Below are positions 40,620 through 58,669 of a DNA stretch of 64,000 nt, piece after piece. Numbering within the stretch: the first letter of the stretch is position 1; each line of letters opens with the position of its first letter. The position numbers and the translations under genes are program-made. The notes under the pieces are model-generated. The model saw only the letters and a program-made list of their open reading frames with translations, was not told the origin of the DNA and searched no databases. This DNA is from an uncultured Nitrososphaerota archaeon (lineage in GTDB: Archaea; Thermoproteota; Nitrososphaeria; Nitrososphaerales; Nitrosopumilaceae): positions 192,001 through 256,000 of the forward strand of contig CAWGPD010000001.1 of NCBI GenBank assembly GCA_963824385.1, read 5' to 3'.

Positions 40620-40925
40620 TTACTTATTTAAAACTAGTTTAGCTTCAAGCACTTGAGATGATTCTAATATAGAATTTCTAGGTTTTATCAAATTACTTTC
40701 ATTTTTTATCATACCATAATGTAGTAGAGATAATCTATTTTTTCGTGACTGTGTATTTCTTGAGTTTAATCGTAGTTTATTATTGCAACATGGACAACGT
40801 ATTCCAGAGGATAGCGAGTCTACAAATATTCCGCATATAGAACAAGGTCTTTGTCCCACTGCAAATCTAAATCCTCCCAATGGTTTTTTTGCTGCAAACC
40901 TGTAGCAAATTCCTTTGCACTTCAA
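40620..40925 (-). CDS. Small zinc-finger protein
   Basis: CKGIC...CSIC...CPCC..KLR. Confidence 0.7.
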   Translation of the reverse strand: MKCKGICYRFAAKKPLGGFRFAVGQRPCSICGIFVDSLSSGIRCPCCNNKLRLNSRNTQSRKNRLSLLHYGMIKNESNLIKPRNSILESSQVLEAKLVLNK

Positions 40926-42628: not shown

Positions 42629-42664
42629 AATACGTTCAACATAATCAAGGTAATTTAAGACCTG

Positions 42665-42671
42665 TGGTACA
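42665..42671 (-). promoter_or_regulatory. TGTACCA motif upstream of the TATA of the pentapeptide gene
   Basis: 37 nt from the ATG at 42628. Confidence 0.6.
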
Positions 42672-42856
42672 ACTATCGAAAATAAATTCCAATTCCAATT
42701 TCATGGAATATACCATACTTGTGTAATTATATTTGCAAGGAGAAATCTGCGAAAGATGTTTAATTTAGGAAATAAAGTCTACAAACATACTGGTACTAAT
42801 TTCAATGGTACTTGTTGAAAAATAAAAAAGAATTGGTTATGGTAAAAAAATAGTTT

Positions 42857-43894
42857 TTACCCAATTACGTTCATAAATCCAGTGGCAATAGAGAACGTTG
42901 ATGTGTATCTTTCGTTGTTTTTACTAAGATCTACAGTCGTGAGCACTTGTGTTGACAAGAGCAAAGTCAGTTACTCCATAAGGATTTGCCGACTCTGTTG
43001 TTTGTGCAGGATGACCATTATTATCTCCCATGTAAGGAGCGTCTGCATCTGTTTTCAAACCAATGTCAAAGTGGTATACGCACATGCCAAGTGTTTTGGG
43101 ACTTGATATGTGATTTAGATACTGCATTGTTGATGCCTCCATTGTAAAGACTCCTCCGTCTATGATTCCTTGATAGAGTCTAAGGTCTGGAGTTCCATCT
43201 GATTCACACGGTAATACCATTGCCATGTGTCCATGGGTAGTGTACCAAGGTGTGGTATCTGCCAAGTCCAAGAATGTGCCAGGCTTTAGGGATTACTCCT
43301 GCAAGATGGAACCATTCTTCAGTTGGGACTCCACCATTTCCAGGTAGAGACGATAGTCCTGCTGATGGGACGTTCCATCCATCAGTGTAGTTACCTTGTG
43401 TGTAACCTCTTACTGGTGCAACATCACAGTCGCCATAGTATCCTATTCCATTTTGCACCCAACATGGATGATTTACATCCAATCCCATCATGTTTGGATA
43501 GTTCATGTTAACTATGCCTACATCCATCTCCATCAGTGGTATTCTGCTGGGCACACCATCCTGTAAATGATGAAGCTTGCAGTACAGAGGATGGCGGGTT
43601 GTTTGGATATGATGCCATGTCGTAGATGAATGTGTCTCCAGGACCTCTTGTTGGTGAGTCTGATGGTAGAGTTGTCATCATACACATGTGAGGATTTCCA
43701 TTTAGACCAGTTGTGAAATAACTTGGTGGCGGTGCTGTCGTAGTCGGTGGATTAAATGGTGTTGGTGCTGCGATATATGGTGCTTGAAAGCCATATGCAG
43801 AGGTCATTGTCTGACCAGAACCTGCCATTCCCAATCCGACTATTACTGCAATTGCCACAATTGCAGTCGTCGATTTTCGTTGTTGAAAATTCAT
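42857..43894 (-). CDS. Secreted Met/His/Cys-containing protein (split by ~3 frameshifts)
   Basis: Signal peptide; successive ORFs join; DLADTTP...GHMAMVLPC...MCVYHFD. Confidence 0.65.
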
Positions 43895-43930
43895 TAAATC
43901 TCTTGTTGATACTTTTTATTTTAAACATTA

Positions 43931-43937
43931 TGGTACA
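43931..43937 (-). promoter_or_regulatory. TGTACCA motif upstream of TATA
   Basis: 37 nt from the ATG at 43894. Confidence 0.6.
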
Positions 43938-44070
43938 AAAGTAGAATGATTTTTTGCATTGCTGCCAGTAAAAGTTACTGTGTTATCGGCACAATCAATT
44001 AATTTGTCTGACATTTGCAAGGACAAGTCTTCGAAAGACGTTTAATTTACCAGATAGAGTCTAAGATTGT

Positions 44071-45183
44071 TTGAAAAAATATCTTGGATTAATTCTGGTA
44101 GGAGTTTTGGCAATACAGGTGCTGAGTATCTCCCAAGTGTTTGCAGTATACCCATGCGATAGCCCATACTGCCCATATACTCCACCTGGTTTTCAAACGG
44201 AGGACTTTAAATTAAAATCAAATCCTGTCATATGTGAAATAGAGCCAAATGATACAAGATTTCCAAATCTTGCACAGACTGTAATCACTACAACTCATCA
44301 AGCTGTAAAAAATTGGACAACTCTTCTAAACAGTGATGCTGAAAAAAATTCCACATGGGATATAGATGAGATAATAATTCCTCCAGGTGATAAGACAAAT
44401 CTAGACCCTGCATGCAACATTGCCATCGTATATGAAAGTCAGGAGCTTGACTATTGTGGTCAGGTGTTTAATGGAGTGTATTTTCCCTGCGGTCAAATAT
44501 TTAATGGAAAATCAATTCTCAATCCAGATATAGGGACTTCTCTTATTCTCATCCCATATCTTATGCCAATATACGGCAAGCAGTGTGAATATGAAAAAAA
44601 TGGCACCGTCTATGATTCCATATGTCGTTCCCAGCAAGAGATTGAGAGTCATTCAAGTCTTTTGAAAGCAATCCAGCACGAGATGGGCCATTCCATGGGG
44701 CTTGGACATTTCATTGCAAACTCGCAAGACGAGGTGGACAGGTGGTTTGCAGGAACTCAATCTGTTCCGTCTATAATGGTCTCAGGACAAGAGGGATACA
44801 TGGAGTATGCCAAAGTTACTCCACTTGATGCAAGCCAAGTTCGGGACATATATGGAAAAAATGGATTTAAAGAAATTAGTACGGTGGACGTACAGAATTC
44901 ATCCAGTCTTAGATTACAAATTCAATCACATGTTCCATCATGGATAAAAAATGTGACAGATTTGTGGTTGCAAGAAAAGATTACTGATTTGGAATTTGAG
45001 GACTGTATAAAATATCTCCCATGGCAGGGAGTAATTTCAATTCATAATACCATACCTTCTTCATCGATGATACAAGAGATTCCTTCATGGGTTAAAGACA
45101 TTGTAAAATGGTGGAGTATTGGTCAAACTGACGACACTTACTTTACAAGCATAGCACAGTGGATAATACAGACTAGAGTATGA
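44071..45183 (+). CDS. Secreted matrixin-like (metzincin) zinc metalloprotease with two PxWxK C-terminal repeats
   Basis: HEMGHSMGLGH; SIM Met-turn; VPSWIK/IPSWVK. Confidence 0.85.
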   Translation: MKKYLGLILVGVLAIQVLSISQVFAVYPCDSPYCPYTPPGFQTEDFKLKSNPVICEIEPNDTRFPNLAQTVITTTHQAVKNWTTLLNSDAEKNSTWDIDEIIIPPGDKTNLDPACNIAIVYESQELDYCGQVFNGVYFPCGQIFNGKSILNPDIGTSLILIPYLMPIYGKQCEYEKNGTVYDSICRSQQEIESHSSLLKAIQHEMGHSMGLGHFIANSQDEVDRWFAGTQSVPSIMVSGQEGYMEYAKVTPLDASQVRDIYGKNGFKEISTVDVQNSSSLRLQIQSHVPSWIKNVTDLWLQEKITDLEFEDCIKYLPWQGVISIHNTIPSSSMIQEIPSWVKDIVKWWSIGQTDDTYFTSIAQWIIQTRV

Positions 45184-45389
45184 AATCATCCCTTTTTAAA
45201 AGAAAATATACCCAATTTGGAACCAGCATTTTAGTATCATCCATTCAATGGTCAAAAAATATACCACTATTGTATTTTTAGTTAAACCCTGGCAGAGGAT
45301 GCTAGTCATATCTGCCAGAGTCATCGTTATGATGAACAACGATACACTATGTTTAGACATAATCATACTTGTTCAAATAATAAAGAGAT

Positions 45390-45412
45390 TGGTACATTCA
45401 TCTATTGTACCA
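45390..45412. promoter_or_regulatory. Palindromic operator TGGTACA-N9-TGTACCA
   Basis: Perfect 7-9-7 inverted repeat. Confidence 0.75.
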
Positions 45413-45495
45413 TAAATTTTCAAATAGAATAATAGAGTTACACAGTCAAAATATACATTAAACTAAAATAATAAAAAATAATTTCCAGAATAGAA

Positions 45496-45582
45496 TTAAT
45501 TTTTGTCTCTTTTTAGAAACGAAAACCATTTTCTTTTGGGTTTTTCTTTAGGCATAGTAGGTTGTTTGTCTTCCATAAACAT
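45496..45582 (-). CDS. Candidate 28-aa basic peptide
   Basis: MFMEDKQPTMPKEKPKRKWFSFLKRDKN directly downstream of TATA and the operator at 45611. Confidence 0.35.
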   Translation of the reverse strand: MFMEDKQPTMPKEKPKRKWFSFLKRDKN

Positions 45583-45610
45583 AATGTGGTTTTAATTTTA
45601 ATAACATCGT

Positions 45611-45633
45611 TGGTACATTCGGTAATTGTACCA
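45611..45633. promoter_or_regulatory. Palindromic operator TGGTACA-N9-TGTACCA
   Basis: Perfect 7-9-7 inverted repeat. Confidence 0.75.
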
Positions 45634-45805
45634 GACTTGTTTTATCTCACAACATATTATCTTCCAATAACTGGAATGTCATAGCCATATTTGCCATCGA
45701 GTAAATTGCTATTCATAAATGACATTCCAGTATATTTTTTTAAATATCGGAGAACAAAAAATTATTTCCCATTGTTTCAAGATATTAATTTTTATTTTTG
45801 TAACA

Positions 45806-45828
45806 TGGTACATTTCTCGATTATACCA
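45806..45828. promoter_or_regulatory. Palindromic operator TGGTACA-N9-TATACCA
   Basis: 7-9-7 inverted repeat with one mismatch. Confidence 0.7.
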
Positions 45829-45949
45829 TTTTCCTTATTACGTCATATGCATCATTTAAGATAAGGACGACAAAACCACGCCAGACCATATCGAGCCATG
45901 TGGTTCTCGTCTTTTTTTATTTTACAAAAAATTAGTGTTCAAGTCCAGA

Positions 45950-46423
45950 TTAGTGGACTATCACAACAGGGCAAGGAGAATTCTCCAGTACATGACGGCT
46001 GACACTTCCAAGAATTTTTATTTTATTTATGCCTCGCAGTCCCTGGCTGCCCATAATTATGAGACCATTTTTGTTTGTTCTTGGCATGATCAAGTATGGC
46101 TTTAGCAGGATTGTCTGATACTACTTTGTAGCTTGCCTTTACGCCCTTATTTTGGCAATATGCCTCACAATCTTGCATAAATCCATGGGCTTCGCTTACT
46201 GCCTTTTTTGCAAATTCATCAATTGCCTTGGATGCACTCTTGCCTTTGATTGCACCTGAGAGAACTACCCCCGCAGGTCGTGCCGTAGATGCACTCACAG
46301 ACTGCTAAGAGTTCAATCTCAGAATCAAGTCTTTTGGAGATCTCGATTGCTTCGTCTAGTGCTCTTTTAGAATACTCTGAATCCATCCAGTGGAACAAGT
46401 ATGCTAGAATAACTTTTTACCAT
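45950..46423 (-). CDS. Universal stress protein (several frameshifts)
   Basis: YSSILVPLDG..YSKRAL.EA; PAKAILD; IMGS.G; LGSVSRHVLENSPCPVVIVH pieced across frames. Confidence 0.75.
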
Positions 46424-46489
46424 AAACTAAAGTCAAGTTTTAGTCTATTATAAACATTGAAGAATATCATTTTTGATAATATAAAAAGG

Positions 46490-46792
46490 CTAGTTTTGTT
46501 GCTTGTTTCGTGTAATTGCAATAACTGCAATTACAATACCTGCAATGCCAATACCAATTCCAGTCATGCTTATCATGTATAGTGTATCAATACTATTCTT
46601 TACGTCCTGGAAAGATTGTGCCACATGTGAATAACTCTGGGCAGCACTATTGGCAGTATTTTTTGCATCGTTGATTTCGCCAGTCAGTTGGTCTATAACA
46701 TTTTGTGATGTCTGTGCAGATGCATGATGAATCAAATTAGACATTCCAACAAAACACAATGCAAGAACAAAAGTTAAAATTATAATTTTCAT
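46490..46792 (-). CDS. Exported coiled-coil protein with C-terminal TM anchor
   Basis: Signal peptide; C-terminal GIGIGIAGIVIAVIAI; TGTACCA motif 38 nt upstream (46830). Confidence 0.75.
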   Translation of the reverse strand: MKIIILTFVLALCFVGMSNLIHHASAQTSQNVIDQLTGEINDAKNTANSAAQSYSHVAQSFQDVKNSIDTLYMISMTGIGIGIAGIVIAVIAITRNKQQN

Positions 46793-46852
46793 GTGTTATC
46801 AAAAAACGCCAATTTTCTTAAATATGTTTTGGTACAAGATCAAAATAAAATC

Positions 46853-47496
46853 CTAAAAGTTAAGAAAACCCCTAGTCTTTGCAGTCACTGCAATTACACT
46901 TACTATAGCAATTACAAGAACTAGTGATGCAATAGGACCAAATTCTGGTACTGCATTGTTTGACATGCTAGATTCATGTTGCCAGACATGTTCATCGAAT
47001 TTGTACTAGTCATGTTCATGGCATTCATGCTACCAGACATTGGTGGAAAATAATAACTGTCCTTGGCTTCAACTTCTTGCATTGGATATGTAGTAGATGG
47101 AACGGCTGTTCCGTTTATTGTACCCTGAATTATAACATTATAGGTTCCAGCTTGTGAGGGTATCAGGGCAGAGACATACAGTCCTGGAGTGTCATCACTT
47201 GCCTCAAAGTCTAGAGTCTTTGTCTGACCACCATATTGTATAGTGACAGTCATGTTGTTTAGTGCATTACCAACAATGGGTGCTGCTTGGTCAGTAGTTC
47301 CGTTATACACGTAGACGTCAACCTCATTCAAGTCTCCAACAAACGGCGGTTCATTTAACCAGCCTATTTTTACCGATAAATTTGGTGAAAAGTTCTTTAG
47401 GATATGTGCCTCTGCTGGATGAATAGCATACGGACCAACAATAACTACAACCAAAGCAAGTATAGCTGGGATTATTATTTTTCTATTCATGTCCAC
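46853..47496 (-). CDS. YtkA-like Ig surface protein with predicted mature His1, Met-rich linker and PEFG-CTERM (frameshift near 46970)
   Basis: AEA|HILK; GW.NEPP; PGLY...IP...GTY; MSGSMNAMNM...; the other frame gives VPEFGPIASLVLVIAIVSVIAVTAK. Confidence 0.8.
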
Positions 47497-47508
47497 TTGT
47501 CTCCATTA

Positions 47509-47967
47509 TCAAGGAAAGTTATACTTGTCCTTGGCTTCAACTTCTTGCATTGGATAAATGGTAGAGGGAATGGTCACTCCATCTATGGTTCCTTTGATTA
47601 TGGTATTGTATGTTCCAAGTTGTGTTGGAATTACAGCTGCACTATACAATCCAGGTGTATCATCACTTGCATCAAAACTGAGTACCTTGGTCTGACCACC
47701 ATATTGTACGGTTATGGTCATGTTATCAAGACCGTTACCTGCAATTGGAGGAGCAGAGTCATCAGTGCCGTTGTAAAGATAAACATCAATCTGATTTGTA
47801 TCACCAACAAGCGGAGGTTCATTCTCCCAGCCGATTTTTACTGAAACATTTGGTGCAAAGTTCTTCAAGATGTGCGCCTCTGCTGGATGAATAGCATATG
47901 GTGCAACAATAACTGCAACTATCGCAAGTAAGACTGGAATGATAATTTTTTTGGTGTTCATTTTCAT
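47509..47967 (-). CDS. Tandem paralog of the YtkA-like His1 protein, without Met-rich tail or anchor
   Basis: Highly similar to the 47496 gene up to YPMQEVEAKD.Y.FP, then stop. Confidence 0.85.
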   Translation of the reverse strand: MKMNTKKIIIPVLLAIVAVIVAPYAIHPAEAHILKNFAPNVSVKIGWENEPPLVGDTNQIDVYLYNGTDDSAPPIAGNGLDNMTITVQYGGQTKVLSFDASDDTPGLYSAAVIPTQLGTYNTIIKGTIDGVTIPSTIYPMQEVEAKDKYNFP

Positions 47968-48005
47968 AATTAGTAAATATGCCGAATATTTGAATATATA
48001 GATTA

Positions 48006-48052
48006 TGGTACAACCCCAGAATACCGCAAAATTCTGTTTTGCGTTTGTACCA
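48006..48052. promoter_or_regulatory. Divergent promoter region with outward-facing half-sites TGGTACA (48006) and TGTACCA (48046)
   Basis: Each half-site lies just upstream of a TATA box serving the 47967(-) or 48101(+) gene. Confidence 0.65.
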
Positions 48053-48100
48053 ATAGGATATTAAATTTTAAATGCATACCAAGGAGTAGAATGTTGTATT

Positions 48101-51082
48101 ATGAGTTTTAAAAGTAGCATGTCGTCAAAGCCTTCAAATAAAATAATTTTTTCAGTATTTGTCTCATTGTTTATTTTGGCAATAATTTCAGGCATTCCAA
48201 AATCATATGAACACGCATTTGTCATAGACAGCAACCCCGCACCTGCTACATCAGTAAATACAGTTCCAGCACAGATTGAGATAGAGTTTGTCGACCCAAT
48301 CGACATGCGATATAGTCAGATCAAGGTATTGGATTCAAACGGCAAGGCAATACAAAATAATGATTGGCATTTTTTAAATGACGAGCATACAAAGACTGCA
48401 GTCACCCTTCCACCTGATACTCCAAATGGCATTTACACAGTTTACACCAAAGTACTTGATGCGACAGACGGTCATACAACTACAAATGCATTTGTCTTTG
48501 CAATAGGACAGCCAATACCTGCAAGTCTTTTGAATGCAAAAACAAACATTAGTTTTGCAGATATCGTATCCATTCCAGATAGCATTGCAAGATACCCGAC
48601 ACTTTTAGGACAGATAATTGTCGTGGGAGCTGTCTTCTCAACATTTTGGTTATGGAGACCAGTTTCTAGAATTCCTGCATTAAATGATGCAACAAAATTA
48701 ATGCGCTCAAAGATCGACATGAGCACAACCAAGATTGTACTGATTGGTTCCATTATAATTCTGATAGGAGATGTAGCAATGATTGCATCTGAAGCTTCGT
48801 CAATAAATTCCGGCATACTAGAAGCAATGGGCACTACATTTGGAAATTTATGGATTGTAAGAATGGTACTATCATTAGCATTGTTTGGAATTGCTTTATC
48901 GTTATACCTTAAACAAAAAAAATCAAACACAAATTTATCAAAAGGTCAGATAATTATTTTATTTGCATTAGGAATTGCAGTACTTACCACTACTACTTTG
49001 ATAAGCCATGGTGCGGCAAGCGGTAAGTTAGCTGCTGCGATACTTGATTTTGTACACAATGTGGTAGCATCATTATGGATTGGAAGTGTCATTTACTTGG
49101 CATTTATTGCAGTTCCGCAATTAAAAAAAGTACAAGACGAAAAAAGCAGCATGTCAGTTTTGTCATTAATCATACCCCAATTTTCTACAATAGTTGTTGC
49201 ACTTTTAGGGTTAGTAGTTATCACAGGGCCGTTTCTGCTCTATGTACTTGAGAACAATCTTTCATTGACTCTAGCATCAATATACGGTGAGATTCTCATC
49301 ATCAAACTCTCACTGGCTGCCGCAATGATAGGAATCGGGGCTTTTAATCAGAATGTAATTTACAGAAATGCGCTCAAAGCAGTAATATCATCACAGATTA
49401 CGAAAGGTTCCACAATGCCCAAGGATTACGAGGCTAGAAGTACAGGAAGTTCAGTTCTTGCCAAGTTTAACAAGAGCATAAAGATCGAGGCAATGATAGG
49501 GCTGGCTTTGATTGCATCAATTGCAGTATTGGCAGATTCTGGACTTCCAGCTATTCAATTCCAAGATGAATTAGTACAACAGCAACAGCAGATTCCGCAT
49601 GTCTTTGCATTTACCCCACTGGAGAGCCTAGTTCAAAACAAGTTTACCGAGACAAGTTTTACAGATAATGGAAATATCATACTAACTGCAGACCCGTTCT
49701 TTGCAGGACAAAATAATATTACAATATCATTTGTGGATTCAAAAAATAATCCAATTGATATCAACTCTACAAAGATTACACTAAACCAAGTAGACAAGGG
49801 AATTGGCCCAATTGCAGTCAATGATGCAGTAAAGATATCTCAGGGAGTATTTTCTGTCAACACTGCAGCTCTTGCAATACCGGGACACTGGGAAGCACAA
49901 GTAGAAGGATTAACAACAACAACTGGCGCACTAAACGTTGTTACAAACTTTAATGACCTATATGTAAAACCAAATTTGAATCAGCTTCAAGCCAACATAA
50001 CTGAATTCAAATTGCCAGACAGCAAGGCCTTGCCGCTATATCCAACTTTTGATGTCATCAGAAATGCAATATGGGTTGGAGACTCTGAAATTAACAGTGG
50101 AAGAATATGGGAGTTTAATCTAGGCTCTAAACAATATACAGAGCACAAAATTAATGGAACCAATATCATCACTGGAACTGCAATGGACTTTGAGAACAAC
50201 GTATGGTATATTGATCCCATAACAAAGATTGTTGGACAATACATGCCAGATGACAAGACGGATAAGAAATATCACATTCCAGGAAATGGTACAGTATCAG
50301 GAATTGTTGTAGACAACTCAGATAATATCTGGTTAACGGTATCAAGTACTAGCGAGGTTCTAAAACTAGATACAAAAACAAAGACATTCCAGTCGATAAA
50401 GTTGCCAGATAATTCTGTGCCACTTGGTATCTCAATTGACCAGTCAACAGGTCAGGCATGGGTAGCAGAGAGTGGCTCTGGAAAGATTGCAAACATAGAT
50501 CCTGCACAAAACTACAAGATTACAGAGTACACTCCATTTAACAGCACACTTGCAAGTCCTACTACAATATTATTTGATTCAGTAACTAACCAGGTCTTTG
50601 TTTCAGAACATGACGGCAAGGCAGTATCATCTTTTGATCCGTTGCTCAAGAGTTTTAAAAAATACAACACAGACCCTCAAGGCTTACCGTTTGGCATGGC
50701 ATTTGATCCAAATCATGATCTATGGTTGGCACAGCACACTCTAAACAAAGTAGCAGTTATAGATACAAGAACTGGCAAGTATGCCGAATTTAACATACCA
50801 ACTCCATCATCATTTACGCAATGGATAACAGCTGACTCGCAAGGTGACATGATAATAGCAGAGCAACGTGCAAATGCACTTGGAATAATCACCACTAGTC
50901 TAAAGCCAGGATTTGTTGAAAATACCGAAACAAGTACAACGTTAGGGTTGCAATTAGGAGTAGGATATGCAGACGTGGCAGGTCCTGCAATTGTAGCAGG
51001 GCTAGTAGGTGTGGCCTTTTTCTATACCAAGAGTGTGATGGATCTCAGGGGCAGTATAAAACAGGTAAAGAAAAACTATTAG
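48101..51082 (+). CDS. Copper-uptake/resistance fusion: CopC + CopD + YtkA-like Ig + Vgb-like beta-propeller + C-terminal TM
   Basis: HAFVIDSNP...DGH (CopC); SHGAA, DFVH...SLWIG, YG..L.IK (CopD); GQNN.TI.F..PGHWE; propeller blades. Confidence 0.9.
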   Translation: MSFKSSMSSKPSNKIIFSVFVSLFILAIISGIPKSYEHAFVIDSNPAPATSVNTVPAQIEIEFVDPIDMRYSQIKVLDSNGKAIQNNDWHFLNDEHTKTAVTLPPDTPNGIYTVYTKVLDATDGHTTTNAFVFAIGQPIPASLLNAKTNISFADIVSIPDSIARYPTLLGQIIVVGAVFSTFWLWRPVSRIPALNDATKLMRSKIDMSTTKIVLIGSIIILIGDVAMIASEASSINSGILEAMGTTFGNLWIVRMVLSLALFGIALSLYLKQKKSNTNLSKGQIIILFALGIAVLTTTTLISHGAASGKLAAAILDFVHNVVASLWIGSVIYLAFIAVPQLKKVQDEKSSMSVLSLIIPQFSTIVVALLGLVVITGPFLLYVLENNLSLTLASIYGEILIIKLSLAAAMIGIGAFNQNVIYRNALKAVISSQITKGSTMPKDYEARSTGSSVLAKFNKSIKIEAMIGLALIASIAVLADSGLPAIQFQDELVQQQQQIPHVFAFTPLESLVQNKFTETSFTDNGNIILTADPFFAGQNNITISFVDSKNNPIDINSTKITLNQVDKGIGPIAVNDAVKISQGVFSVNTAALAIPGHWEAQVEGLTTTTGALNVVTNFNDLYVKPNLNQLQANITEFKLPDSKALPLYPTFDVIRNAIWVGDSEINSGRIWEFNLGSKQYTEHKINGTNIITGTAMDFENNVWYIDPITKIVGQYMPDDKTDKKYHIPGNGTVSGIVVDNSDNIWLTVSSTSEVLKLDTKTKTFQSIKLPDNSVPLGISIDQSTGQAWVAESGSGKIANIDPAQNYKITEYTPFNSTLASPTTILFDSVTNQVFVSEHDGKAVSSFDPLLKSFKKYNTDPQGLPFGMAFDPNHDLWLAQHTLNKVAVIDTRTGKYAEFNIPTPSSFTQWITADSQGDMIIAEQRANALGIITTSLKPGFVENTETSTTLGLQLGVGYADVAGPAIVAGLVGVAFFYTKSVMDLRGSIKQVKKNY

Positions 51083-51171
51083 AATAAATTTTTAATTAAA
51101 GAATTTGTCAAGTATAATTTTTTGTACAAAGTTCTTTAAACAATTTTTTAAAAATTAATCTAAAGACTCTG

Positions 51172-52158
51172 CTATCTGAACTTGGGCAGAGATCTTGCAA
51201 TAACAATTACAGAAACAAATGAAAGTATCACAAGCAGGAGAGGCATTGGAAACTCTGGTACTGCAGACGTATTTGATATTAATGGAATATTTAATCCAGA
51301 TATAAAATTAGGATGTATCTGCTCATGCACTATCATCATTACATCATCTCCGGATTGTTTTGTGTTGATATCTTGCTGTAATTGGCCAAAAGCAGTTTCA
51401 ATCTTGACAAGATAAGGAGATGCACTTGGCGGAGCCATCGATTTTACGTTTTCAAACATGGATTGAGCTGCAATTTCGAGTTGTTGAGAACTTTGATATG
51501 CTGGAGCATCAACAATCGTCATCTGAGTTCCTGTCATACTACCAGAACTTCCCATGTTCATTCCTGACATACCTTTCATTCCTGACATACCACTCATTCC
51601 AGACATGCTACCAGAACTTCCCATACTCATGTTATTCATATTCATATTTGCCATATTAGTGAGATCTTCTTTTGAGCCAATTGCATCAGCATAATCTATT
51701 AGTACTTGATTTAGGACATCAAGTGTTGCAAGAGATTGTATAGTTGCATTATTTTGCACAGAACTTGAAATTTCTGAAGCTTCGACTTGATCCAAAAGTT
51801 GATTCAGTACAACTGAATTTTGTGATGCAATAGTGAGGTCAGGGTTAGCACTGCCAGACATGGAATACAAATTATTAATTGCCGATGAAAGACTATTAGC
51901 CAAAGTTGCGTTTTGTTGAGTAAGTGTATTCATTTCATTTATCCCCCAATATTCTTGACTTTTTGAAATATGCCAGTTGGCAGTTTTACTGTCAGAAATA
52001 CTATTAGCAATAAGAGTTGATTCTACCTTGAATTCTTGGATTTTTGCAATAAGATCTGCATCGGAATTTTTTACAAAATTATGAGCAAATACAGGATGAA
52101 CAAACATCATTCCCACAAGTCCAATTACCATTAACGATACAACAATTTTCTTTGCCAA
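51172..52158 (-). CDS. Surface protein with predicted mature His1, Met/Gly/Ser-rich loop and PEF-type anchor
   Basis: VFA|HNF; MANMNMNNMSMGSSGSMSGMSGMSGMKGMSGM; MMIVHEQIHP; VPEFP + TM. Confidence 0.85.
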   Translation of the reverse strand: MAKKIVVSLMVIGLVGMMFVHPVFAHNFVKNSDADLIAKIQEFKVESTLIANSISDSKTANWHISKSQEYWGINEMNTLTQQNATLANSLSSAINNLYSMSGSANPDLTIASQNSVVLNQLLDQVEASEISSSVQNNATIQSLATLDVLNQVLIDYADAIGSKEDLTNMANMNMNNMSMGSSGSMSGMSGMSGMKGMSGMNMGSSGSMTGTQMTIVDAPAYQSSQQLEIAAQSMFENVKSMAPPSASPYLVKIETAFGQLQQDINTKQSGDDVMMIVHEQIHPNFISGLNIPLISNTSAVPEFPMPLLLVILSFVSVIVIARSLPKFR

Positions 52159-52195
52159 ACTATGACAGTATATTCAAAATAATATTAAAATGTAA

Positions 52196-52242
52196 TGGTA
52201 CAATCTTCGAATATTACAAATTTTAGCCTCAATCTTGGTACA
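52196..52242. promoter_or_regulatory. Two TGGTACA half-sites (52196, 52236)
   Basis: The first is 38 nt from the TTG start at 52158. Confidence 0.55.
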
Positions 52243-52349
52243 GCATTTACACCCATATCCACAATCCTTGGATTAATCCCAATCCACTTGTCTTGATTGT
52301 GGCATATTTTTTGTACATCATACATAATAATAAGGAAAAAAATAATGTG

Positions 52350-52493
52350 ATGGTAATGAAAAATCTTGTATGTGGAATGGAAGTAACCGAAAAGAAACAC
52401 ATGACAAAATACAATGGAAAAGACTTTCTCTTTTGTTGTGCCCATTGCAAAACAACTTTTGAAAAAAATCCAAAGCAATTTGTTAAAGAATAA
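52350..52493 (+). CDS. Stand-alone YHS/TRASH metal-binding domain protein
   Basis: LVCGMEV...YNGKDFLFCCAHCK..FEKNP. Confidence 0.85.
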   Translation: MVMKNLVCGMEVTEKKHMTKYNGKDFLFCCAHCKTTFEKNPKQFVKE

Positions 52494-52683
52494 CATTGAG
52501 GGTCATCATCCATCACGATGTTGTTTCTTATTTGACTAGAGAGAGACATCTCAATCATATGCTGCAATAACATTTGCAATAAATACACATTTGTTGTACA
52601 ATGAAGATTTACTTCATAGTTCAAATTCAAATACGATATCCTCCTATGATATTTTTATACAAGTTATGCGAAGAAGAGGTGAG

Positions 52684-52935
52684 ATGGGTCACCACAGCCT
52701 TGCTGATAACATAATGATGCTTGTGATGTCAGTTGCAATGCTTACAATGGTAATGTCAATGTTAATCATGGGAGTCAATTGGTCCATAGTACTCCTAATT
52801 CTATCAGGAGTATTGACAGCTGTAACAACTGTCTTTTATTCATTCCAGTCTGCCAGATGTATGTGTGGAACCAATCAATACAATAAGCAATCAAACAAAG
52901 CGATATCTGACGCTACATGTGATTGTCCTAAGTGA
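52684..52935 (+). CDS. Small Met-rich 2-TM protein with CxC motifs
   Basis: MGHH...IMMLVMSVAMLTMVMSMLIMG; CMC and CDC in the tail. Confidence 0.6.
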   Translation: MGHHSLADNIMMLVMSVAMLTMVMSMLIMGVNWSIVLLILSGVLTAVTTVFYSFQSARCMCGTNQYNKQSNKAISDATCDCPK

Positions 52936-53082
52936 AAAATGATGAATAAATATAGCACATGCGATTCAACGATATAACATTTGTAAGTCAAGAAAAAACT
53001 ACATGATGTAGATATTCCAGTTTTAAAAAATGGTACCATCCCAGGAATTTTACTAAATGAGGAGTAATATCAAACATCAATG

Positions 53083-53178
53083 TCATTGTACTTTTGTGTC
53101 AAAGTTAGTATCTCCAGAATATTTTGCAGAAAGTGTATGAGTTCCAATCAATAATGACGAGGAGGACATTGTAGTCAT
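53083..53178 (-). pseudogene. Remnant of a bacterial Ig-like (Big_3-type) domain gene
   Basis: SSLLIGTHTLSAKYSGDTNF matches the GTH.ITA.YSGD.NF signature. Confidence 0.45.
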
Positions 53179-53203
53179 ATGAGTACTAGTTCGAATCGGA
53201 GTG

Positions 53204-53599
53204 TTATTTTCTCCTTTGACTAATTATAACCCATGCAAATGGAATTCCTACCAGACATGCTGTGAGCATAGTCATCCATTCCAAAAAAATGGGTATTTTT
53301 TCATTTGAAGATATTCCCAACCTGTCAGACATTTCGCGCATACCAGACATGTTGGACATACCAGCCATTCCATGCATACCAGACATGTTGGACATACCAG
53401 CCATTCCATGCATACCAGACATGTTGGACATACCAGCCATTGTCTCACTTGATATCATTTTAATCGAGTATGCAGAATAGTATTGTTCAGCATTTACTGT
53501 ATGAAGTTGAGAAACTAATACAAATACAATACCTACGAAAATGATCGAAAAAAGACCAAACCAAACACAGGCCAAGTTTTTCTTTAACATAGAGGCCAT
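53204..53599 (-). CDS. Membrane protein with Met/His-rich tandem repeat (MAGMSNMSGMHG)
   Basis: Two TMs flanking Met-rich repeats; TGTACCA motif 40 nt upstream (53639). Confidence 0.75.
   Translation of the reverse strand: MASMLKKNLACVWFGLFSIIFVGIVFVLVSQLHTVNAEQYYSAYSIKMISSETMAGMSNMSGMHGMAGMSNMSGMHGMAGMSNMSGMREMSDRLGISSNEKIPIFLEWMTMLTACLVGIPFAWVIISQRRK
53339..53441. repeat. 36-bp tandem repeat x~2.8 (coding, Met-rich)
   Basis: CATACCAGACATGTTGGACATACCAGCCATTCCATG. Confidence 0.9.
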
Positions 53600-53714
53600 T
53601 CGTAACACTCGTTTATTTCTTTTAGAAATTAAAATCAGTGGTACAATCCACGAATGAATTACCAAAATTGAGAATCAAGGACATGCATATCTATGGATTT
53701 AAACAATAAACAAT

Positions 53715-53822
53715 ATGACACATTGTAATTGTGGAGCTAAACATGAAACTACTTGTAGTTGTCAAAAAACTGGCAAATGCGACTGCGGCAGTAGTTGCAC
53801 CTGCAAAGATTGCAGATGTTAA
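53715..53822 (+). CDS. Metallothionein-like peptide (35 aa, 10 Cys in five CxC pairs)
   Basis: Not in ORF track; MTHCNCGAKHETTCSCQKTGKCDCGSSCTCKDCRC; no aromatic residues; 71 nt upstream of copA, same strand. Confidence 0.8.
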   Translation: MTHCNCGAKHETTCSCQKTGKCDCGSSCTCKDCRC

Positions 53823-53893
53823 TCAAGCAACACGTGTTCACAGCAAGCCAAGTAATGAGGTTAAAATATTCTTCTTTTTTAGAGTGAGCTAGA

Positions 53894-55999
53894 ATGGCGC
53901 GAGACCCCATATGTGGAATGTTTGTAGAGGAAAAAAATGAGTCATTAAATTTTGAAACAGATGGAAGAAGGTATTATTTTTGCTGCAAAAGCTGCCTAGA
54001 CGAATTCGCCATGCCAGAAAAAGAACTCAAAAAACTAAAGAGTCATGTCGTACTGGCTATCATTTTAACAATTCCCACAGTTTTGCTAACATATATCGCA
54101 ATTATACCTCACCAATTAAACCCCTACGTACTTTTTGCATTAGCAACACCAGTCCAGTTCTGGCTCGGTTGGAGATTCTATCAGGGTACATATGATGCAT
54201 TCAAGCACAAGATGACTAACATGGATGTCCTAATCGCATTAGGAACATCCACCGCGTGGGGATACAGCACTGTCATAACTTTTGTGCACAATGTAGTACC
54301 AATGGCAGATGTATACTTTGAAACATCTTCAGTCATAATCACGCTTTTGTTAATTGGAAGATTACTTGAGAGTAAGACCAAGACAAGAGCATCAAAGGCT
54401 GTAAAAAAACTACTGGATCTTAAACCAAGATTTGCTCATGCCATAAAAAATAATCAAGAGGTAGAGGTACCAGTTGAGCAAGTACAACCAGACGATATAA
54501 TCATAGTTCGTCCAGGGGAAAGAATACCTGTAGATGGAACAATAATTGAAGGAAGATCGTCAATAGATCAATCTGCGATAACAGGTGAGAGTATCCCAGT
54601 AGAAAAAGAAGTTGGAGATGATGTCATTGGAAGCACCATCAACAAAGAAGGCGCATTCAAATTCAAAGCAACCAAGGTAGGAGACGAATCTGTCTTATCG
54701 CAAATAGTAAAGCTTGTCGAGGATGCAAAATCAAGCAGGGTTCCGATACAAAAGCTTGCTGATAAAATATCATCATATTTTGTACCACTTATAATTACAA
54801 TAGCAATAATTTCTGCACTGGGGTGGTTCTTTGTAGGTGGAATTGGCCTTACTTTCTCAATTCTTGCATTTGTTTCAGTAATAATAATTTCTTGTCCATG
54901 TGCGCTTGGAATTGCAACACCTGCAGCTCTAATGGTAGGAGCAGGCAAGGCTGCAGAAAACGGCATCCTGATAAAGGGTGGTGAAAATCTTGAAAATGCA
55001 AGAAAGGTTCAGATTATAATATTCGACAAAACCGGGACTTTAACCAAGGGAATTCCTTCTGTTACTGATGTTGTGACTATAAACGAGATGAACAGCGATG
55101 AGATATTACGCCTTGCCGCAATTTCAGAGAAAAATTCAGAGCATCCCCTTGCAAGAGCTATAGTAAGACATGCAAAAAAAACAAATCTCGTAGTTTCAGA
55201 TCCAGATTCGTTTAAATCCATCACAGGTAGTGGAGTTGAAGCCCAGTACGGAGATCATCAGATATTGATAGGAAATAGAAAATTCATAACAAATAACGGC
55301 ATTACAATTGATGAAAAAATGGAGAAGAAGATTCAGGAATTTGAAGAAGGCGGAAAGACTACAATCATCATATGTATTGACAAAAAATTATCAGGAATAA
55401 TTGCAATGATGGATACGATCAGTGACAACGCACTAGAAGCCATACAGAGGCTCAAAAAGAATGGAATTCAAGTAGCAATGCTTACAGGAGACAACACAAA
55501 GATTGCCAATGCAATAGCAAGTAAACTTGGAATAGACCGAGTTTTCGCAGAAGTATCACCTCAAGAAAAAGAGAACGTCATAGCAAAAATAAAGCAAGAA
55601 GGAAAGACTGTAGCAATGGTGGGAGATGGAATCAATGACGCCCCCGCACTTGCAGCAGCTGATTTAGGAATAGCATTTGGAAGTGGAACAGATATTGCAA
55701 AGGAGACTGGAGGGATTATACTTGTCAAAGATGATTTAAGAGATGTTGTAACAGCAATAGAGCTAAGCAAGAAAACTGTTGCCAAGATTAAACAAAATCT
55801 TGTACTGTCATTTGTTTACAACTCGGCATTAATTCCAGTTGCAGCTGGCGCACTTGTTCCAATATTTGGCCCTCATGTGTACATGATCTTGCCGTTTCTT
55901 GCAGCTGGCGCAATGGCAACAAGCTCCATAACGGTAATTAGTAATTCCCTATTATTGAACAGGTACAAACCAATGAGACAGAGGTTAGAAATAAAATGA
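53894..55999 (+). CDS. copA: Cu(I)-translocating P1B-type ATPase with N-terminal YHS domain
   Basis: [45 protein letters not shown] and MxxSS P1B-1 motifs. Confidence 0.95.
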
Positions 56000-56172
56000 T
56001 CCCAAAATCCATTTTATTGATACGTGAAACTTCATATCATAATTTTAGGAGAAATATGTCAACTCAGATCTTTACTGCATGGGCGCACTCTCCATACAGC
56101 AAAGAGCAGAGCAGAATGAAGTCAAATCATTATGCAGTATCAATACCACGTCATTTTACAAGATAAAGAAAT

Positions 56173-56195
56173 TGGTACATTAGTCGAATATACCA
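56173..56195. promoter_or_regulatory. Palindromic operator TGGTACA-N9-TATACCA
   Basis: 7-9-7 inverted repeat; a further TGTACCA at 56243 precedes the TATA of the 56284 gene. Confidence 0.7.
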
Positions 56196-56283
56196 TGTAT
56201 GAAGATACTTTGCTTCATACCATGAATGAGCCATTCTATAGTTGTACCAGTTCGTTTAAATTTCTAAAAAGCGTAAATTTACT

Positions 56284-56676
56284 ATGCAGAAAGAAAGCCA
56301 TCTATTGGAAAATAGGCCAAAGCTTTTTACCATAATCATTTTTTCTGTAATCGCAATTTTTGCAGTACCAGTAATACTTCCTCATGTATTTCACGAATTT
56401 CAAGTCTTCCACATACTACTCCACTTAAGCGGAGTTGCAATAGCCAGTTTTCTTACCATAGTTTCTTCAGTAGCATATGCAAGAATTAAAACAAAAAGGC
56501 TAATGTTTACAATGATAGCATTTGGCTTATTTGCAGTTGCAGAGGTATTCTCAGTCATCGATGCAGCATGGCAGTATACTTATTATTTCGGGTCCGTCTC
56601 AGCAGATGAGGTAGGACATATTCTTGAATTATGCACATTGGGGATGTTTGCATTGAGTGTGTTTAGGAGAGATTAG
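56284..56676 (+). CDS. 4-TM His-containing membrane protein, co-transcribed with a regulator
   Basis: PHVFHEFQVFHILLH; EVGH; 1-nt gap to the wHTH gene. Confidence 0.8.
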   Translation: MQKESHLLENRPKLFTIIIFSVIAIFAVPVILPHVFHEFQVFHILLHLSGVAIASFLTIVSSVAYARIKTKRLMFTMIAFGLFAVAEVFSVIDAAWQYTYYFGSVSADEVGHILELCTLGMFALSVFRRD

Positions 56677-56677
56677 A

Positions 56678-57175
56678 ATGGATAGAAGTATAGAGATCAT
56701 AAACATTGTAGAGAAAAATCCAGGGATAAAGTTTCGAGAGATTATGAGAGAGTCCGGACTGAAAAATGGAGTTCTAAGTTATCACGTAAGAAAATTAGAA
56801 GAGAGTGGTAGTGTAAAGATAGATAGAAAGTCAGGAGAGACCCGATTTTATCCCCTTTGCGTTACAGATGAAGAATCAAATCTTATAACAAGTCTTAGGC
56901 GAGACACTCAAAGATATATTTTATTATCTTTGCTTGATGGTAAATCACTTGCATTTAATGAGATAGTTTCGAAAGTCAGAAAATCACCTTCGACTGTTTC
57001 TACATTCCTTGGAAGACTTGTTGATGATAACATAGTGGAAATTAAGATCGTGGGATTAAAGAAAGTCTACTTTTTAAAAAATACAGACATGGTTCGTGAG
57101 ATAATTGAAAAATACAATCCAATTCTTCTTGAAAGAACTGCATACAACTTTGCAGACACGTTTGCAAACCTTTAG
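56678..57175 (+). CDS. Double winged-helix (ArsR-like) transcriptional regulator
   Basis: NPGIKFREIMR..GLKNGVLSYH...LE; second HTH FNEIV....KSPSTVS..L..L. Confidence 0.85.
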   Translation: MDRSIEIINIVEKNPGIKFREIMRESGLKNGVLSYHVRKLEESGSVKIDRKSGETRFYPLCVTDEESNLITSLRRDTQRYILLSLLDGKSLAFNEIVSKVRKSPSTVSTFLGRLVDDNIVEIKIVGLKKVYFLKNTDMVREIIEKYNPILLERTAYNFADTFANL

Positions 57176-57301
57176 GAATTACAACTCACAATTTACCATG
57201 CAGTCACGTATTATGCAATAATTGTACCATAATACTAGATACGAGTAAATGAGAAACTACTCACTATTTATTTAGAGTCAAAGGATAAAACTCAATCAAA
57301 T

Positions 57302-58669
57302 ATGAACAAGATTCTAGTCCTGTTTACTATTGCATTAATTCTATTTCCTAGCGTCATGTTCTTGTCAGCCCATGGAGACGGATTAGCAAGTGAAACATTA
57401 CCGCCGTCCATGATTGGTAACAAAAATGTCACATTATCAATCAACACATCGCCATTTTTGATAAACGACTATCAGTCTGGAACACAGATAAATTTTGTAT
57501 TGATGGATGTCACTGATCAGCAGCCAATTCCAGATGCAACAATCGCAGTTTCAGTCTTCAAGGACAATAAAGCTGTAGTTGGTCATGTGTTTATGAGCGA
57601 TAGTGGAAATTTCCTACTTGATTTGATTCCAGACACAACAACAAACAGCACTTCAATTGATGAACAAGGTGGAATATTTCCAGGTCTGTTGGGGCATAGT
57701 GGAGAATATAACATCAAAGGACCTGCATTTTCCACCGCAGGATTGTACAAATTCAAAATCGAAGTTCTCACAATGGGATCATATGATTACCAAGTAAGCA
57801 AGTCATTTGATGCCGGAGTATCACTTCCAGAAACAGACAATTATCAAGTCTATGATAAAGACTATGGAAATCAGAACGTTACACTAATTGCTTATTATGA
57901 TAAAATCAGTGATTTTCAATACAATACAGATACCAAGACTATAAGTTTTGTAATGCCGTTTAACTGGGATCCTGATAATGTAAAACAAGTATCAGTTGTG
58001 CACCAGGAATTAAAGATACCAAGAACATTTAGTGATTTTATAGTTACAAAATATGATGTATCCATTAATGGAGTAAAGATACCTGACAAAGAAATCAGCA
58101 TAGATGATTATTCATCAGATGAGCGAATAGTACACCTAATTTTATACAAAACTGATGTGGCAAACATTGTAAAAGAGCAGAACAGTACAAAGCAAGAGAT
58201 GGATTACTCTATTTCTCCCAGCAACACTATCAGTTTTCCAATCATACAATATACAAGAAATGCACAATACAAGGTGAGTCTTAGCTGGGACCCCCCAAAA
58301 ATTCTCCCAGGTTCAACAACCAGATTTAGTTTCCAAGTTCTAGATCCTTATTTGGTAAATAAAACAGTCGACCCCTTAGACTATGATTTTTCCATAATTG
58401 CTGGAAAGAATGGAGTGATATTTCACAAGAGTGATACTACTAATAGCAATGGCACCATGAATATAATCAATGTTCCATTCCCGTCTAATTATACGGGTCC
58501 AATTACAATTGCATTTGAGAATTTAAACGATAATAGTTTTGCAGATTCAGAATTCTCAGGAATTGTTTCAGTCCCCACAATAGTTCCAGAATTTCCCGCA
58601 GGGCTATTGTTAATAACTGCAATCACATTTTCAATCATCCTAGTACTTCCAAGACTAGGGAAAAAATGA
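57302..58669 (+). CDS. Secreted surface protein with PEF-type C-terminal anchor
   Basis: Signal peptide; GLYKFKIEV, F.MPFNW, IDDYS; VPEFP + TM. Confidence 0.85.
   Translation: MNKILVLFTIALILFPSVMFLSAHGDGLASETLPPSMIGNKNVTLSINTSPFLINDYQSGTQINFVLMDVTDQQPIPDATIAVSVFKDNKAVVGHVFMSDSGNFLLDLIPDTTTNSTSIDEQGGIFPGLLGHSGEYNIKGPAFSTAGLYKFKIEVLTMGSYDYQVSKSFDAGVSLPETDNYQVYDKDYGNQNVTLIAYYDKISDFQYNTDTKTISFVMPFNWDPDNVKQVSVVHQELKIPRTFSDFIVTKYDVSINGVKIPDKEISIDDYSSDERIVHLILYKTDVANIVKEQNSTKQEMDYSISPSNTISFPIIQYTRNAQYKVSLSWDPPKILPGSTTRFSFQVLDPYLVNKTVDPLDYDFSIIAGKNGVIFHKSDTTNSNGTMNIINVPFPSNYTGPITIAFENLNDNSFADSEFSGIVSVPTIVPEFPAGLLLITAITFSIILVLPRLGKK

Follow-up and report, generated by a model that had tools for sequence, protein, structure and literature searches.

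A TTCG/TGTACCA promoter element shared by copper-uptake-type genes and predicted small RNAs in a 15-kb island of Nitrosotalea

A 64,000-nucleotide (nt) stretch of DNA from an uncultured Nitrososphaerota archaeon (assembly GCA_963824385.1, contig CAWGPD010000001.1, positions 192,001 to 256,000; the whole stretch is called the window here) contains a 15-kb island in which about ten copper-uptake-type genes and predicted small RNA genes share a promoter motif with the core TGTACCA. The island organism is an acid-soil ammonia-oxidizing archaeon, Nitrosotalea. The motif is best read as an operator just upstream of the B recognition element (BRE) and TATA box of a copper-acquisition regulon. Its likely ligand is a tandem winged-helix regulator encoded in the island (56657-57175), which would switch the genes on at copper scarcity. 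This reading is put forward tentatively and falls somewhat short of probable. The motif has been published before, for a sister lineage in which copper shortage induces the genes that carry it. What is new is its breadth across the order, its 23-bp architecture, its link to the operon that encodes the regulator and a membrane protein (u130), its absence from export genes, and the predicted small RNAs and micro-open reading frame (ORF) that lie under it.

The occurrence of the motif in the island is real and highly non-random. The palindrome TGGTACA-N9-TRTACCA is found without mismatch at 45390, 45611, 45806 and 56173 of the window, exactly where an initial annotation of this DNA had placed it, and these four copies are the only exact ones in the genome (1,677,330 bp in 5 contigs, 86% complete). 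When up to two mismatches are allowed the window has 10 strand-matches where 0.80 are expected, a number that no shuffle out of 100 attains; the extra two-mismatch matches are a real site at 52196 and a match at 31272 inside unrelated sequence. TGTACCA is found 33 times on the two strands of the window, which has a G+C content of 36.2%, against 7.6 expected. None of 100 shuffles reaches 33, a count that is inflated by four copies at 6366-6660. Genome-wide, 19 of the 336 copies of TGTACCA fall in the island (42665-57229), where 2.8 are expected (Poisson 1.6e-10).

The promoter placement is confined in the same way. A crude arrangement filter required TGTACCA, an all-A/T 8-mer 10-15 nt further on, and a start codon within 25-74 nt with an ORF of at least 50 amino acids (aa). 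It passes 16 of the 336 copies; nine of these are in the island, although it makes up just 0.87% of the sequence (binomial 3e-15), and the other seven resemble coding sequence. A position-matrix scan of the whole genome, with a matrix built on the island sites, found no promoter-like site outside the island, and its top ranks are circular because the matrix was trained on those sites. Promoter-placed copies are confined to the island in this genome. All ten half-sites that the initial annotation listed are present. The distance of 35-40 nt between TGTACCA and the start codon of seven named genes holds, and in the first 42 kb, where no such arrangement had been noticed, no copy passes the filter.

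The simplest alternative is that the copies are chance occurrences, or remnants of repeats or mobile sequences, with no regulatory role. The four copies at 6366-6660 are of that kind: they lie 36-129 nt apart on the plus strand, in repeated coding sequence (6366-6666; GGTGTATGTACCAGATGAA...), and are unrelated to the promoter motif. For the island sites this alternative has a negligible probability in view of the enrichment statistics, the fixed promoter geometry, the conservation inside diverged flanks across families and the published expression response in N. viennensis described below. As far as sequence analysis goes, conservation has already refuted it.

The sites share a common architecture. 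The full unit can be written [TGGTAYA]-TTCG-N5-TGTACCA and spans 16-23 bp, with a left arm that is optional or degenerate. Across the aligned island sites TTC, usually TTCG, stands nine bases upstream of TGTACCA. The right arm ends 4-6 nt before a TATA-like octamer, which in turn lies about 24 nt ahead of the start codon. At nine promoters the core begins 41-55 nt from the start codon, and the 18-mer that includes it thus begins 50-64 nt away. Archaeal TATA boxes are usually centered near -26. With that geometry transcription would begin at or close to the start codon, giving leaderless or almost leaderless transcripts, and the site would span about -58 to -36 and adjoin the BRE position. The BRE position in the motif promoters is not purine-rich (GTTCG and the like). 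TTCG and GTAC, about 10.5 bp or one helical turn apart, would present successive major grooves on one face of the DNA, and the two winged helices of a single chain would read TTCG and GTAC.

An extended BRE for a dedicated paralog of transcription factor B (TFB), which the initial annotation had offered as an alternative, would also be oriented toward the gene at a nearly fixed distance from TATA (4-6 nt), and the genome has about five TFB paralogs. A BRE adjoins the TATA box directly and is about 6-7 bp long, asymmetric and purine-rich. The island element stands 4-6 nt from TATA, is 16-23 bp long, and has dyad symmetry and a pyrimidine-rich spacer. The conserved site extends 21-28 nt upstream of TATA with a variable spacer between, and in Nitrosopumilus-type promoters the spacer grows to 7-9 nt. 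The left arm of the palindrome at 45390 is kept in 5/5 species without a divergent promoter, and extra copies stand 40-70 nt upstream at 52236 and 56173. There is no TFB gene in the island, the nearest being at 11660-12124 of the window. An extended BRE is very improbable on this evidence. The TFB gene at 11660-12124 (minus strand) is a TFIIB-cyclin match in a 165-aa frame; the other four paralogs have 314-340 aa, and this one is possibly an N-terminally truncated TFB.

The genes behind the sites are largely of the uptake type. The site at 48037-48052 (plus strand) is the promoter of a CopC-CopD-beta-propeller fusion gene (CopCD, 48101-51082), with a C-terminal beta-propeller and an ATG 55 nt from the motif start (48046). 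The site at 48006-48021 (minus strand) is the promoter of 47509-47967 (152 aa, u152) and 46921-47496 (191 aa, u191). The two proteins are exported paralogs whose mature chains are predicted to begin with His, and u191 has a Met-rich tail. The near-palindromic site at 52196-52218 (minus strand, two mismatches in the left arm) is the promoter of 51172-52158, the gene of a 328-aa Met-rich exported protein (u328) with a long M-x-x-M/GMSGM tract. A second TGTACCA (52236-52242, minus strand) lies 40 nt upstream of it in the same orientation, with no TTC at -9. The site at 56234-56249 (plus strand), of the form TTC-N6-TGTACCA and 5 nt before TTTAAAT, is the promoter of the operon of u130 (56284-56676) and the regulator (56657-57175).

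Four more sites are on the minus strand. That at 42665-42680 (TTCG-N5-TGTACCA, 6 nt before TTAAATTA) is the promoter of a pentapeptide-repeat exported protein gene (41876-42628). That at 43931-43946 (TTC-N6-TGTACCA, 5 nt before TTTAAAAT) is the promoter of the gene of an unknown 128-aa protein (43508-43894), which the ORFs 43204-43554 and 42924-43271 may follow. The site at 46830-46845 (TTTT-N5-TGTACCA) serves a 100-aa membrane-anchored protein gene (46490-46792), whose homologs have the core upstream in 3/3 cases. The fourth, at 53639-53654, serves a 131-aa membrane protein gene with M/H-rich repeats (53204-53599). The TGTACCA at 57223-57229 (plus strand) is probably not a functional site: the half-site listed there exists but it is isolated, 79 nt ahead of the 57302 start, and lacks both TTC and a TATA box at the usual distance.

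The motif is absent before the gene of the P-type ATPase CopA with its YHS/TRASH head (53894-55999, plus strand), before the 35-aa Cys-rich ORF that precedes copA (53715-53822, plus strand) and before the 45-aa YHS protein (52356-52493). It thus marks the acquisition-type genes of the island and not its export or detoxification genes. The copper island of the initial annotation falls into two sets, the uptake-type genes, which carry the motif, and CopA (0/2 homologs) and the Cys-rich peptide, which do not. The 35-aa ORF has 10 Cys, stands directly before copA and matches no Pfam family. The 45-aa YHS/TRASH ORF (plus strand; PF04945, E 1.7e-13) lies between the Met-rich protein gene and 52591, and upstream of it are TGTACAT, a two-mismatch relative of the motif, and a TATA-like sequence.

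The same motif had been found in N. viennensis. In the sections of PMC7785015 (Reyes et al. 2020) drawn on here, 5'-TTCSGSMTTTGWACYANT-3' was found twelve times at genes raised by copper limitation, starting -35 to -70 from the start codon, near two copC/D genes, in some cases on the opposite strand and in some as two copies. It came from MEME on 15 selected genes and the top 25 of a single species. The ArsR-family gene NVIE_014280 had a log2 fold change of 2.47 and the motif-bearing NVIE_014290, with which it is presumed to be co-transcribed, one of 2.72. The N. viennensis copCD region was also raised in biofilms, and NVIE_014290 was called a putative cation channel, in the part of PMC12448741 used. 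Both the letters and the spacing of the N. viennensis motif (TTC, six bases, TGWACYA) equal those of the island sites. The placement and the neighborhood are also the same (copC/D, exported unknowns, and an ArsR-type regulator behind a hypothetical membrane protein), as is the occurrence on either strand and in double copies. TTC or TCG stands at the published offset from TGTACCA in 7/10 half-sites and, in one orientation, in 4/4 palindromes; positions 4-8 of the published motif (SGSM T) are A/T-richer in the island sites, in a genome of 36% G+C. The same sections of PMC7785015 name no binding protein and call the regulation of the cop genes open. Unlike the present analysis, they describe no 23-bp palindromic form and no fixed TATA distance, and their cross-species comparison concerns another, down-regulated motif and not TTCSGSMTTTGWACYANT. 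A literature text search for the consensus string returned PMC7785015 only, and text searches on TGTACCA in archaea and on Nitrosopumilus, copper, regulator and binding motif gave unrelated papers among those listed. The copper-limitation response is known only for N. viennensis.

The regulator and the site before its operon are widespread. The regulator shares 90% identity with its counterpart in Ca. N. bavarica and 82% with the one in N. devanaterra, and it is present in 51 of 61 Nitrosotalea genomes (E<=1e-10). In a 150-genome sample of the order (E<=1e-20) it was found in families f1 (24/32), f9 (10/10), f15 (28/31), f4 (3/7) and f14 (1/7), and in none of the sampled genomes of f10 (0/32), f12 (0/9) and f7 (0/7). 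TGTACCA lies 414-435 nt before the regulator in 29/29 genus loci of the u130/regulator operon (30 were fetched and one with too little upstream DNA was left out). An ungapped alignment of the genus shows TTCGa...TTGTACCAgTTCGTTTAAATT kept within otherwise diverged flanks. The element also stands before the operon in 27/27 loci of other genera (28 fetched, one with too little DNA left out). Its core is TGTACCA, TGAACCA, TGTACTA or TCTACCA according to lineage, and in four further low-G+C f15 loci (4/4) TTTGTACCA stands before TATA. In two f15 genomes of 52-56% G+C (G189 and G144), homologs of a 455-aa protein, u328, the regulator, u130, CopCD and u191 are clustered, all on one strand except the u191 homolog in G144. 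Sites fitting the published consensus letter for letter stand before the CopCD, u191, u130 and u328 homologs of these two genomes.

The membership of the regulon was examined at 80 named loci around the regulator, with gene starts estimated from BLAST alignments. The oriented core was sought within -110 to +20, and the reversed pattern was the control. The core is found before u130 in 70/76 cases (control 9/76; with the strict core, 70 versus 1), before u328 in 32/38 (1/38), before u152 in 13/16 (1/16) and before CopCD in 28/41 (4/41). The counts are 13/35 for u191 (4/35) and 11/30 for a radical-SAM neighbor (1/30). Before the 455-aa protein it is found in 7/77 (15/77) and before CopA in 0/2 (0/2). 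The element is conserved across the order before the same families, namely CopC-CopD, the Met-rich and His-start exported proteins, and the membrane-protein/regulator operon. The earlier proposal that one factor co-regulates the island is thus well supported: the element is confined to the island, is kept before the same families elsewhere, and matches the published copper-limitation motif.

The best candidate binder of the motif is the regulator, and its predicted binding is plausible. It is a tandem winged-helix protein of 172 aa (56657-57175, plus strand) that matches HTH_24 (E 7e-16) and the ArsR-type HTH_5 (PF01022, E 1.2e-13); a match to NF033788 (40.6 bits) is below the 55-bit cut-off. 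The AlphaFold2 model has two winged helices (mean predicted local distance difference test score 85). Domain 2 matches ArsR/SmtB proteins in sequence (E about 5e-6) and in fold (HlyU, NolR and CzrA, with template-modeling scores to target of 0.7-0.77 and a root mean square deviation (rmsd) of 2-2.5 Å). The whole-chain structure matches are tandem winged-helix proteins, including SarS. Among 17 sequences the residues P22, G23, N37, G38, R57, F100, T113 and S115 are invariant and no Cys or His is conserved; the regulator is thus not a classical ArsR metal sensor. The copper sensor would be the co-transcribed His-rich u130 instead; u130 would in turn control the regulator, and the operon would autoregulate. 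This candidate sensor is a 130-aa four-helix membrane protein (56284-56676, plus strand) with invariant P33, H37, H43, H47, F56, F80, E87 and H112 in its four predicted membrane helices. It lies upstream of the regulator in 16/16 loci from three families. It matches no Pfam or NCBIfam family and has only "hypothetical" relatives; the ESM Atlas gave only unnamed Nitrososphaerota clusters, and DUF8036 at 0.84 is a lead only.

The distribution of sites across genomes points to the regulator. Five Nitrosopumilus-type genomes with the regulator have 5, 4, 6, 4 and 8 copies of TTCG-N5-TGWACYA (controls 1, 1, 3, 3 and 1), that is 27 against 9, clustered within about 14 kb of the regulator. The regulator is missing at E<=1e-20 from eight of the 32 f1 genomes. 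Four genomes, G086, G188, G124 and G106 (99% complete), have no family member at E<=1e-3 with a Nitrosopumilus-type query. They have 2, 0, 1 and 2 copies (controls 4, 2, 3 and 8), that is 5 against 17, and no cluster. Genome G171, which has only a 28% paralog, carries five copies, four of them clustered at island-type genes. It is without the orthologous operon and has at L217 (C15:30951-34254) a reversed module, a 177-aa tandem winged-helix gene and then a 113-aa u130-like membrane gene, with TGTACTA and the TATA sequence TTAAATTA about 94 nt upstream. Clustered sites thus accompany a family member in 6/6 genomes and are absent in 4/4 genomes without one.

The recognition helices give a hint of covariation with the core. 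In Nitrosotenuis-type loci the core is TCTACCA in 7/8 promoter-arranged sites, and only in Nitrosotenuis-type regulators does KSQGTVS replace KSPSTVS in the second recognition helix (4/4); these changes count as one event because they belong to a single lineage. In the first helix, TGTACCA goes with S/T-Y-H in 37/37 and TGAACCA with S-H-Y/H in 9/9 of the assigned regulators, with 38/90 regulators unassigned and few independent lineages.

These data bear on the alternative that another transcription factor reads the site and that the u130/regulator operon is only one of its targets, encoding, for example, a secondary regulator of other genes. In favor of this, metal ligands are missing from the island regulator, and two genomes without a homolog (G124 and G106) keep a consensus site, while G086 and G096 keep TGGTACA. 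The match of site clusters to presence (6/6) and absence (4/4) of a family member runs the other way, as does the coincidence of the Nitrosotenuis-type core change with a helix change in the regulator, and both local candidates, a MarR-like protein and NikR, fail. Another reader of the site is thus unlikely, though a possibility of some weight.

The 242-aa MarR-like protein (39868-40596, minus strand) was rejected as a general binder: no homolog was found in 5/5 Nitrosopumilus-type genomes, including the motif-bearing G191. It forms a pair with a 101-aa Cys-rich zinc-ribbon-like ORF (40620-40925, minus strand) beside a NicO-family transporter gene (41041-41835); in genome G010 (L005) a distance of 77 nt separates this pair from a full palindrome. 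The NikR homolog was rejected as a local candidate; in this genome it is at C2:88143-88517, outside the island and 4 kb from the plastocyanin-family pair described below. A NikR-type regulator (RHH plus NikR_C; L226, G171:C23:15154-15537) is found within the copper-uptake cluster of a Nitrosopumilus-type genome.

The sign of the regulation is a separate matter. The same regulator could act at the same site as a repressor, with its copper-bound form, or a copper-loaded membrane partner, blocking TFB and leaving at copper scarcity. The supplement of PMC7785015, in the part used, considers NVIE_014280 as a possible repressor, though of a down-regulated cluster. The ArsR/SmtB-like fold of domain 2 and the right arm, which ends 4-6 nt before TATA and abuts the BRE position, are also consistent with repression. 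The bulk of the site lies upstream of the BRE, the usual place of archaeal activators, and the BRE position is not purine-rich, as expected at factor-dependent promoters. It would also be less economical for a repressor to become more abundant when its regulon is induced. Repression is improbable on balance. The preferred reading is that the regulator would act as an activator when copper is scarce, as suggested by the upstream position of the site and the poor BRE.

A number of points weigh against activation by this regulator. The activator role is read from the position of the site only, and ArsR/SmtB proteins are classically de-repressed by metal, which is the opposite sign. An operon that always bears the site may be a mere member of the regulon and not its master. 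Genomes G124 and G106, which have no homolog at E<=1e-3, retain a single TTCG-N5-TGTACTA at the CopCD-divergent promoter, where G086 and G096 have kept TGGTACA; these sites may be relics, or may be read by another protein. One locus (L054) pairs TGTACCA with S-H-Y, and Nitrosopumilus-type genomes use both cores. Finally, with 86% of the genome in hand, further sites may lie on the missing DNA.

The full palindromes appear to be promoters of small non-coding RNAs and of a 26-aa ORF, which the regulator would drive as well. Three of the four lie in 45184-46022 (840 bp), in which no ORF of 60 aa is found. This region was aligned with four Nitrosotalea genomes, G041, G061 and G076 at 78-82% and G009 at 69%. 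The palindrome at 45390-45412 is followed on the minus strand by TATA (TTTATTAT) and a conserved non-coding block. Both of its arms are kept in 5/5 aligned species, and no conserved promoter is seen on the plus strand. The block at 45255-45352 (minus strand) is predicted to be a small non-coding RNA; it has two hairpins, a T-run and, in G076, a compensatory change of GGCAG/CTGCC to GGTAG/CTACC. It is taken as non-coding because of its 1-nt and loop indels; the start of a 56-aa ORF within it is not conserved. Candidate targets of this RNA were rejected, as the best complements are the start of a UvrA-like gene and a spot without an ORF, and nothing copper-related.

The palindrome at 45611-45633 is a predicted bidirectional promoter in the alignment of five species. 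On the minus strand a small ORF of 26-28 aa (45496-45582; M[EK]D.QP..PKEK.KR.WFSFLKR.KN) starts about 43 nt from the motif. Its start, stop and frame are kept in 5/5 species, with one in-frame 3-nt indel and synonymous changes, and it matches no Pfam family. On the plus strand a predicted hairpin RNA (45671-45741; 12-bp stem, 36-nt loop and T-run) begins about 37 nt after TGTACCA (45627-45633) and TATA (TTTTATCT), and three stem changes in other species stay paired (G-U) only on this strand. The third palindrome, at 45806-45828 (TGGTACA-N9-TATACCA), is conserved in the three closest species. After its TATACCA arm, at 45822-45930 (plus strand), comes a TATA-like CTTATTACG and then a block kept in G041, G061 and G076. 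This block contains an inverted repeat (GACGACAAAACCAC / GTGGTTCTCGTC) and a T-run, and may be another small RNA. Beyond it, at 45950-46420 (minus strand), is a universal-stress-protein-like gene in three broken frames (46219-46398, 46023-46298 and 45950-46093); three relatives (L086, L083 and L098) have DNA that matches this stretch at 69-77% nucleotide identity.

The fourth palindrome (56173-56195) reads on the minus strand TGGTATA-TTCG-N5-TGTACCA, followed after 5 nt by TTTATCTT, and is the promoter of a small RNA predicted to diverge from the u130/regulator operon. This RNA, modeled as R1 (56044-56150, minus strand), has a variable 5' end, a conserved single-stranded TATCGTTTYGACTTCATCC, a 13-bp hairpin and a T-run. 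With its own promoter (motif plus TATA), its T-run and no conserved ORF, it has the sequence features of a trans-acting small RNA. In 20 sequences 94.5% of the cells of its 19-pair structure are paired, and sliding the partners lowers the figure to 36-47%. Eight pairs have changes on both sides, which 0/500 shuffles reach. Rfam gave no family in 42000-58000 at E<=1, R1 included. A covariance model of R1 finds one copy in this genome, copies in 5/8 other Nitrosotalea and none in 112 genomes of 24 other genera of the family sample. R1 appears specific to the genus Nitrosotalea. Its core is present in 21/29 genus loci, essentially those with the distal palindrome; both arms of the palindrome are exact in 16/29 loci, and its presence tracks that of R1. 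Locus L085 of N. devanaterra has the site, the RNA and the operon.

The most conserved block of R1, an invariant G-CTTCA within TTTYGACTTCAT, is the exact 12-nt complement of AATGAAGTCAAA, the start of two tandem plastocyanin-family genes (PF00127; C2:83111-83674 and 83817-84431, L169/L170). Among 9,043 candidate starts the two plastocyanin-family genes come first and second with the 12-nt core, which was chosen after the match had been seen. Seeds of 20 nt put them at rank 84 (own sequence) and 22 (consensus), and a duplex-energy ranking with the whole 46-nt 5' part of R1 gave only spurious matches from the variable region. All of 27 plastocyanin-family gene starts begin ATGAAGTCAAAACCA, although their promoters differ; the 27, from 17 genomes, were picked from many matches as those whose alignment begins at residue 1. 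The first ~35 nt are invariant in these genes, against 60-88% identity in the rest of the proteins, an invariance that may have another cause because it is longer than the pairing. Pairing of R1 with these gene starts is speculative. In a post-transcriptional arm, which is rather unlikely as a whole, the palindrome at 56173 would drive the ~90-nt R1, whose block UUUYGACUUCAU would pair with AUGAAGUCAAAA, the first codons of nearly leaderless plastocyanin-family mRNAs. At copper shortage, uptake would go up and dispensable cupredoxins down, both under the control of the tandem winged-helix protein, which would receive its copper signal from the His-rich membrane partner.

The conservation of the element across the main families of ammonia-oxidizing archaea, its 23-bp architecture at a fixed promoter position, its constant link with the tandem winged-helix gene and u130, and its separation of uptake-type genes from export and detoxification genes turn a MEME finding in one species into a directly testable regulator-operator pair. 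They also provide a signature by which copper-starvation genes can be recognized in the DNA of uncultured lineages and in metatranscriptomes. The small RNAs under the operator would be the first metal-responsive ones proposed for the phylum, as far as text searches show; a literature text search on ammonia-oxidizing archaea, copper, small RNA and plastocyanin found nothing.

The proposed system can be compared with several known ones. ArsR/SmtB proteins such as HlyU, NolR, CzrA and SmtB are homodimers of single-domain chains, whereas the regulator has two different winged helices in one chain and is without the metal-site Cys/His of that family (alpha3N or alpha5). Its regulon would be induced by metal shortage and not by excess, according to the N. 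viennensis data drawn on above. A single-chain tandem winged-helix protein can act like a dimer on a bipartite site, as a pseudo-dimer in one polypeptide. SarS of Staphylococcus aureus (PDB 1p4x) also has two winged-helix domains in one chain and is a Foldseek match over 207 columns. The identity is 10%, the rmsd over the whole chain is 15.7 Å and the biology is unrelated; a likeness in domain arrangement is not implied.

The archaeal activators Ptr2 and TrmBL1, the latter at gluconeogenic promoters, bind just upstream of BRE/TATA. The position of the island operator relative to BRE/TATA and the weak BRE resemble theirs; the protein families and the sites are different, and activation in the island is inferred. 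The GTAC core recalls the copper-response element that is bound by the SBP-domain factors CRR1 of Chlamydomonas and SPL7 of Arabidopsis, the latter system including the copper-microRNAs miR398 and miR408. Induction by copper deficiency is common to both, and the island site is far longer than the plant and algal GTAC. In the genome the best match to the SBP domain (PF03110) has 19 bits against a cut-off of 27, and an internal stop. The likeness is thus convergent or accidental and not homology, in line with the coincidence that the initial annotation had suspected. If the small-RNA reading holds, the logic of SPL7 would be shared, with a copper-deficiency factor driving a small RNA against a cupredoxin mRNA, and the R1 arm would be the archaeal counterpart of SPL7-miR408/398 or RyhB.

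The ycnKJI genes of Bacillus subtilis encode YcnJ, a CopC-CopD protein, YcnI and the regulator YcnK, and are induced by copper shortage. They form a single operon under a repressor of another family, against about ten promoters in the island, and share no operator with it. Yet both combine a CopC-CopD importer, an accessory exported copper-binding protein and a local regulator.

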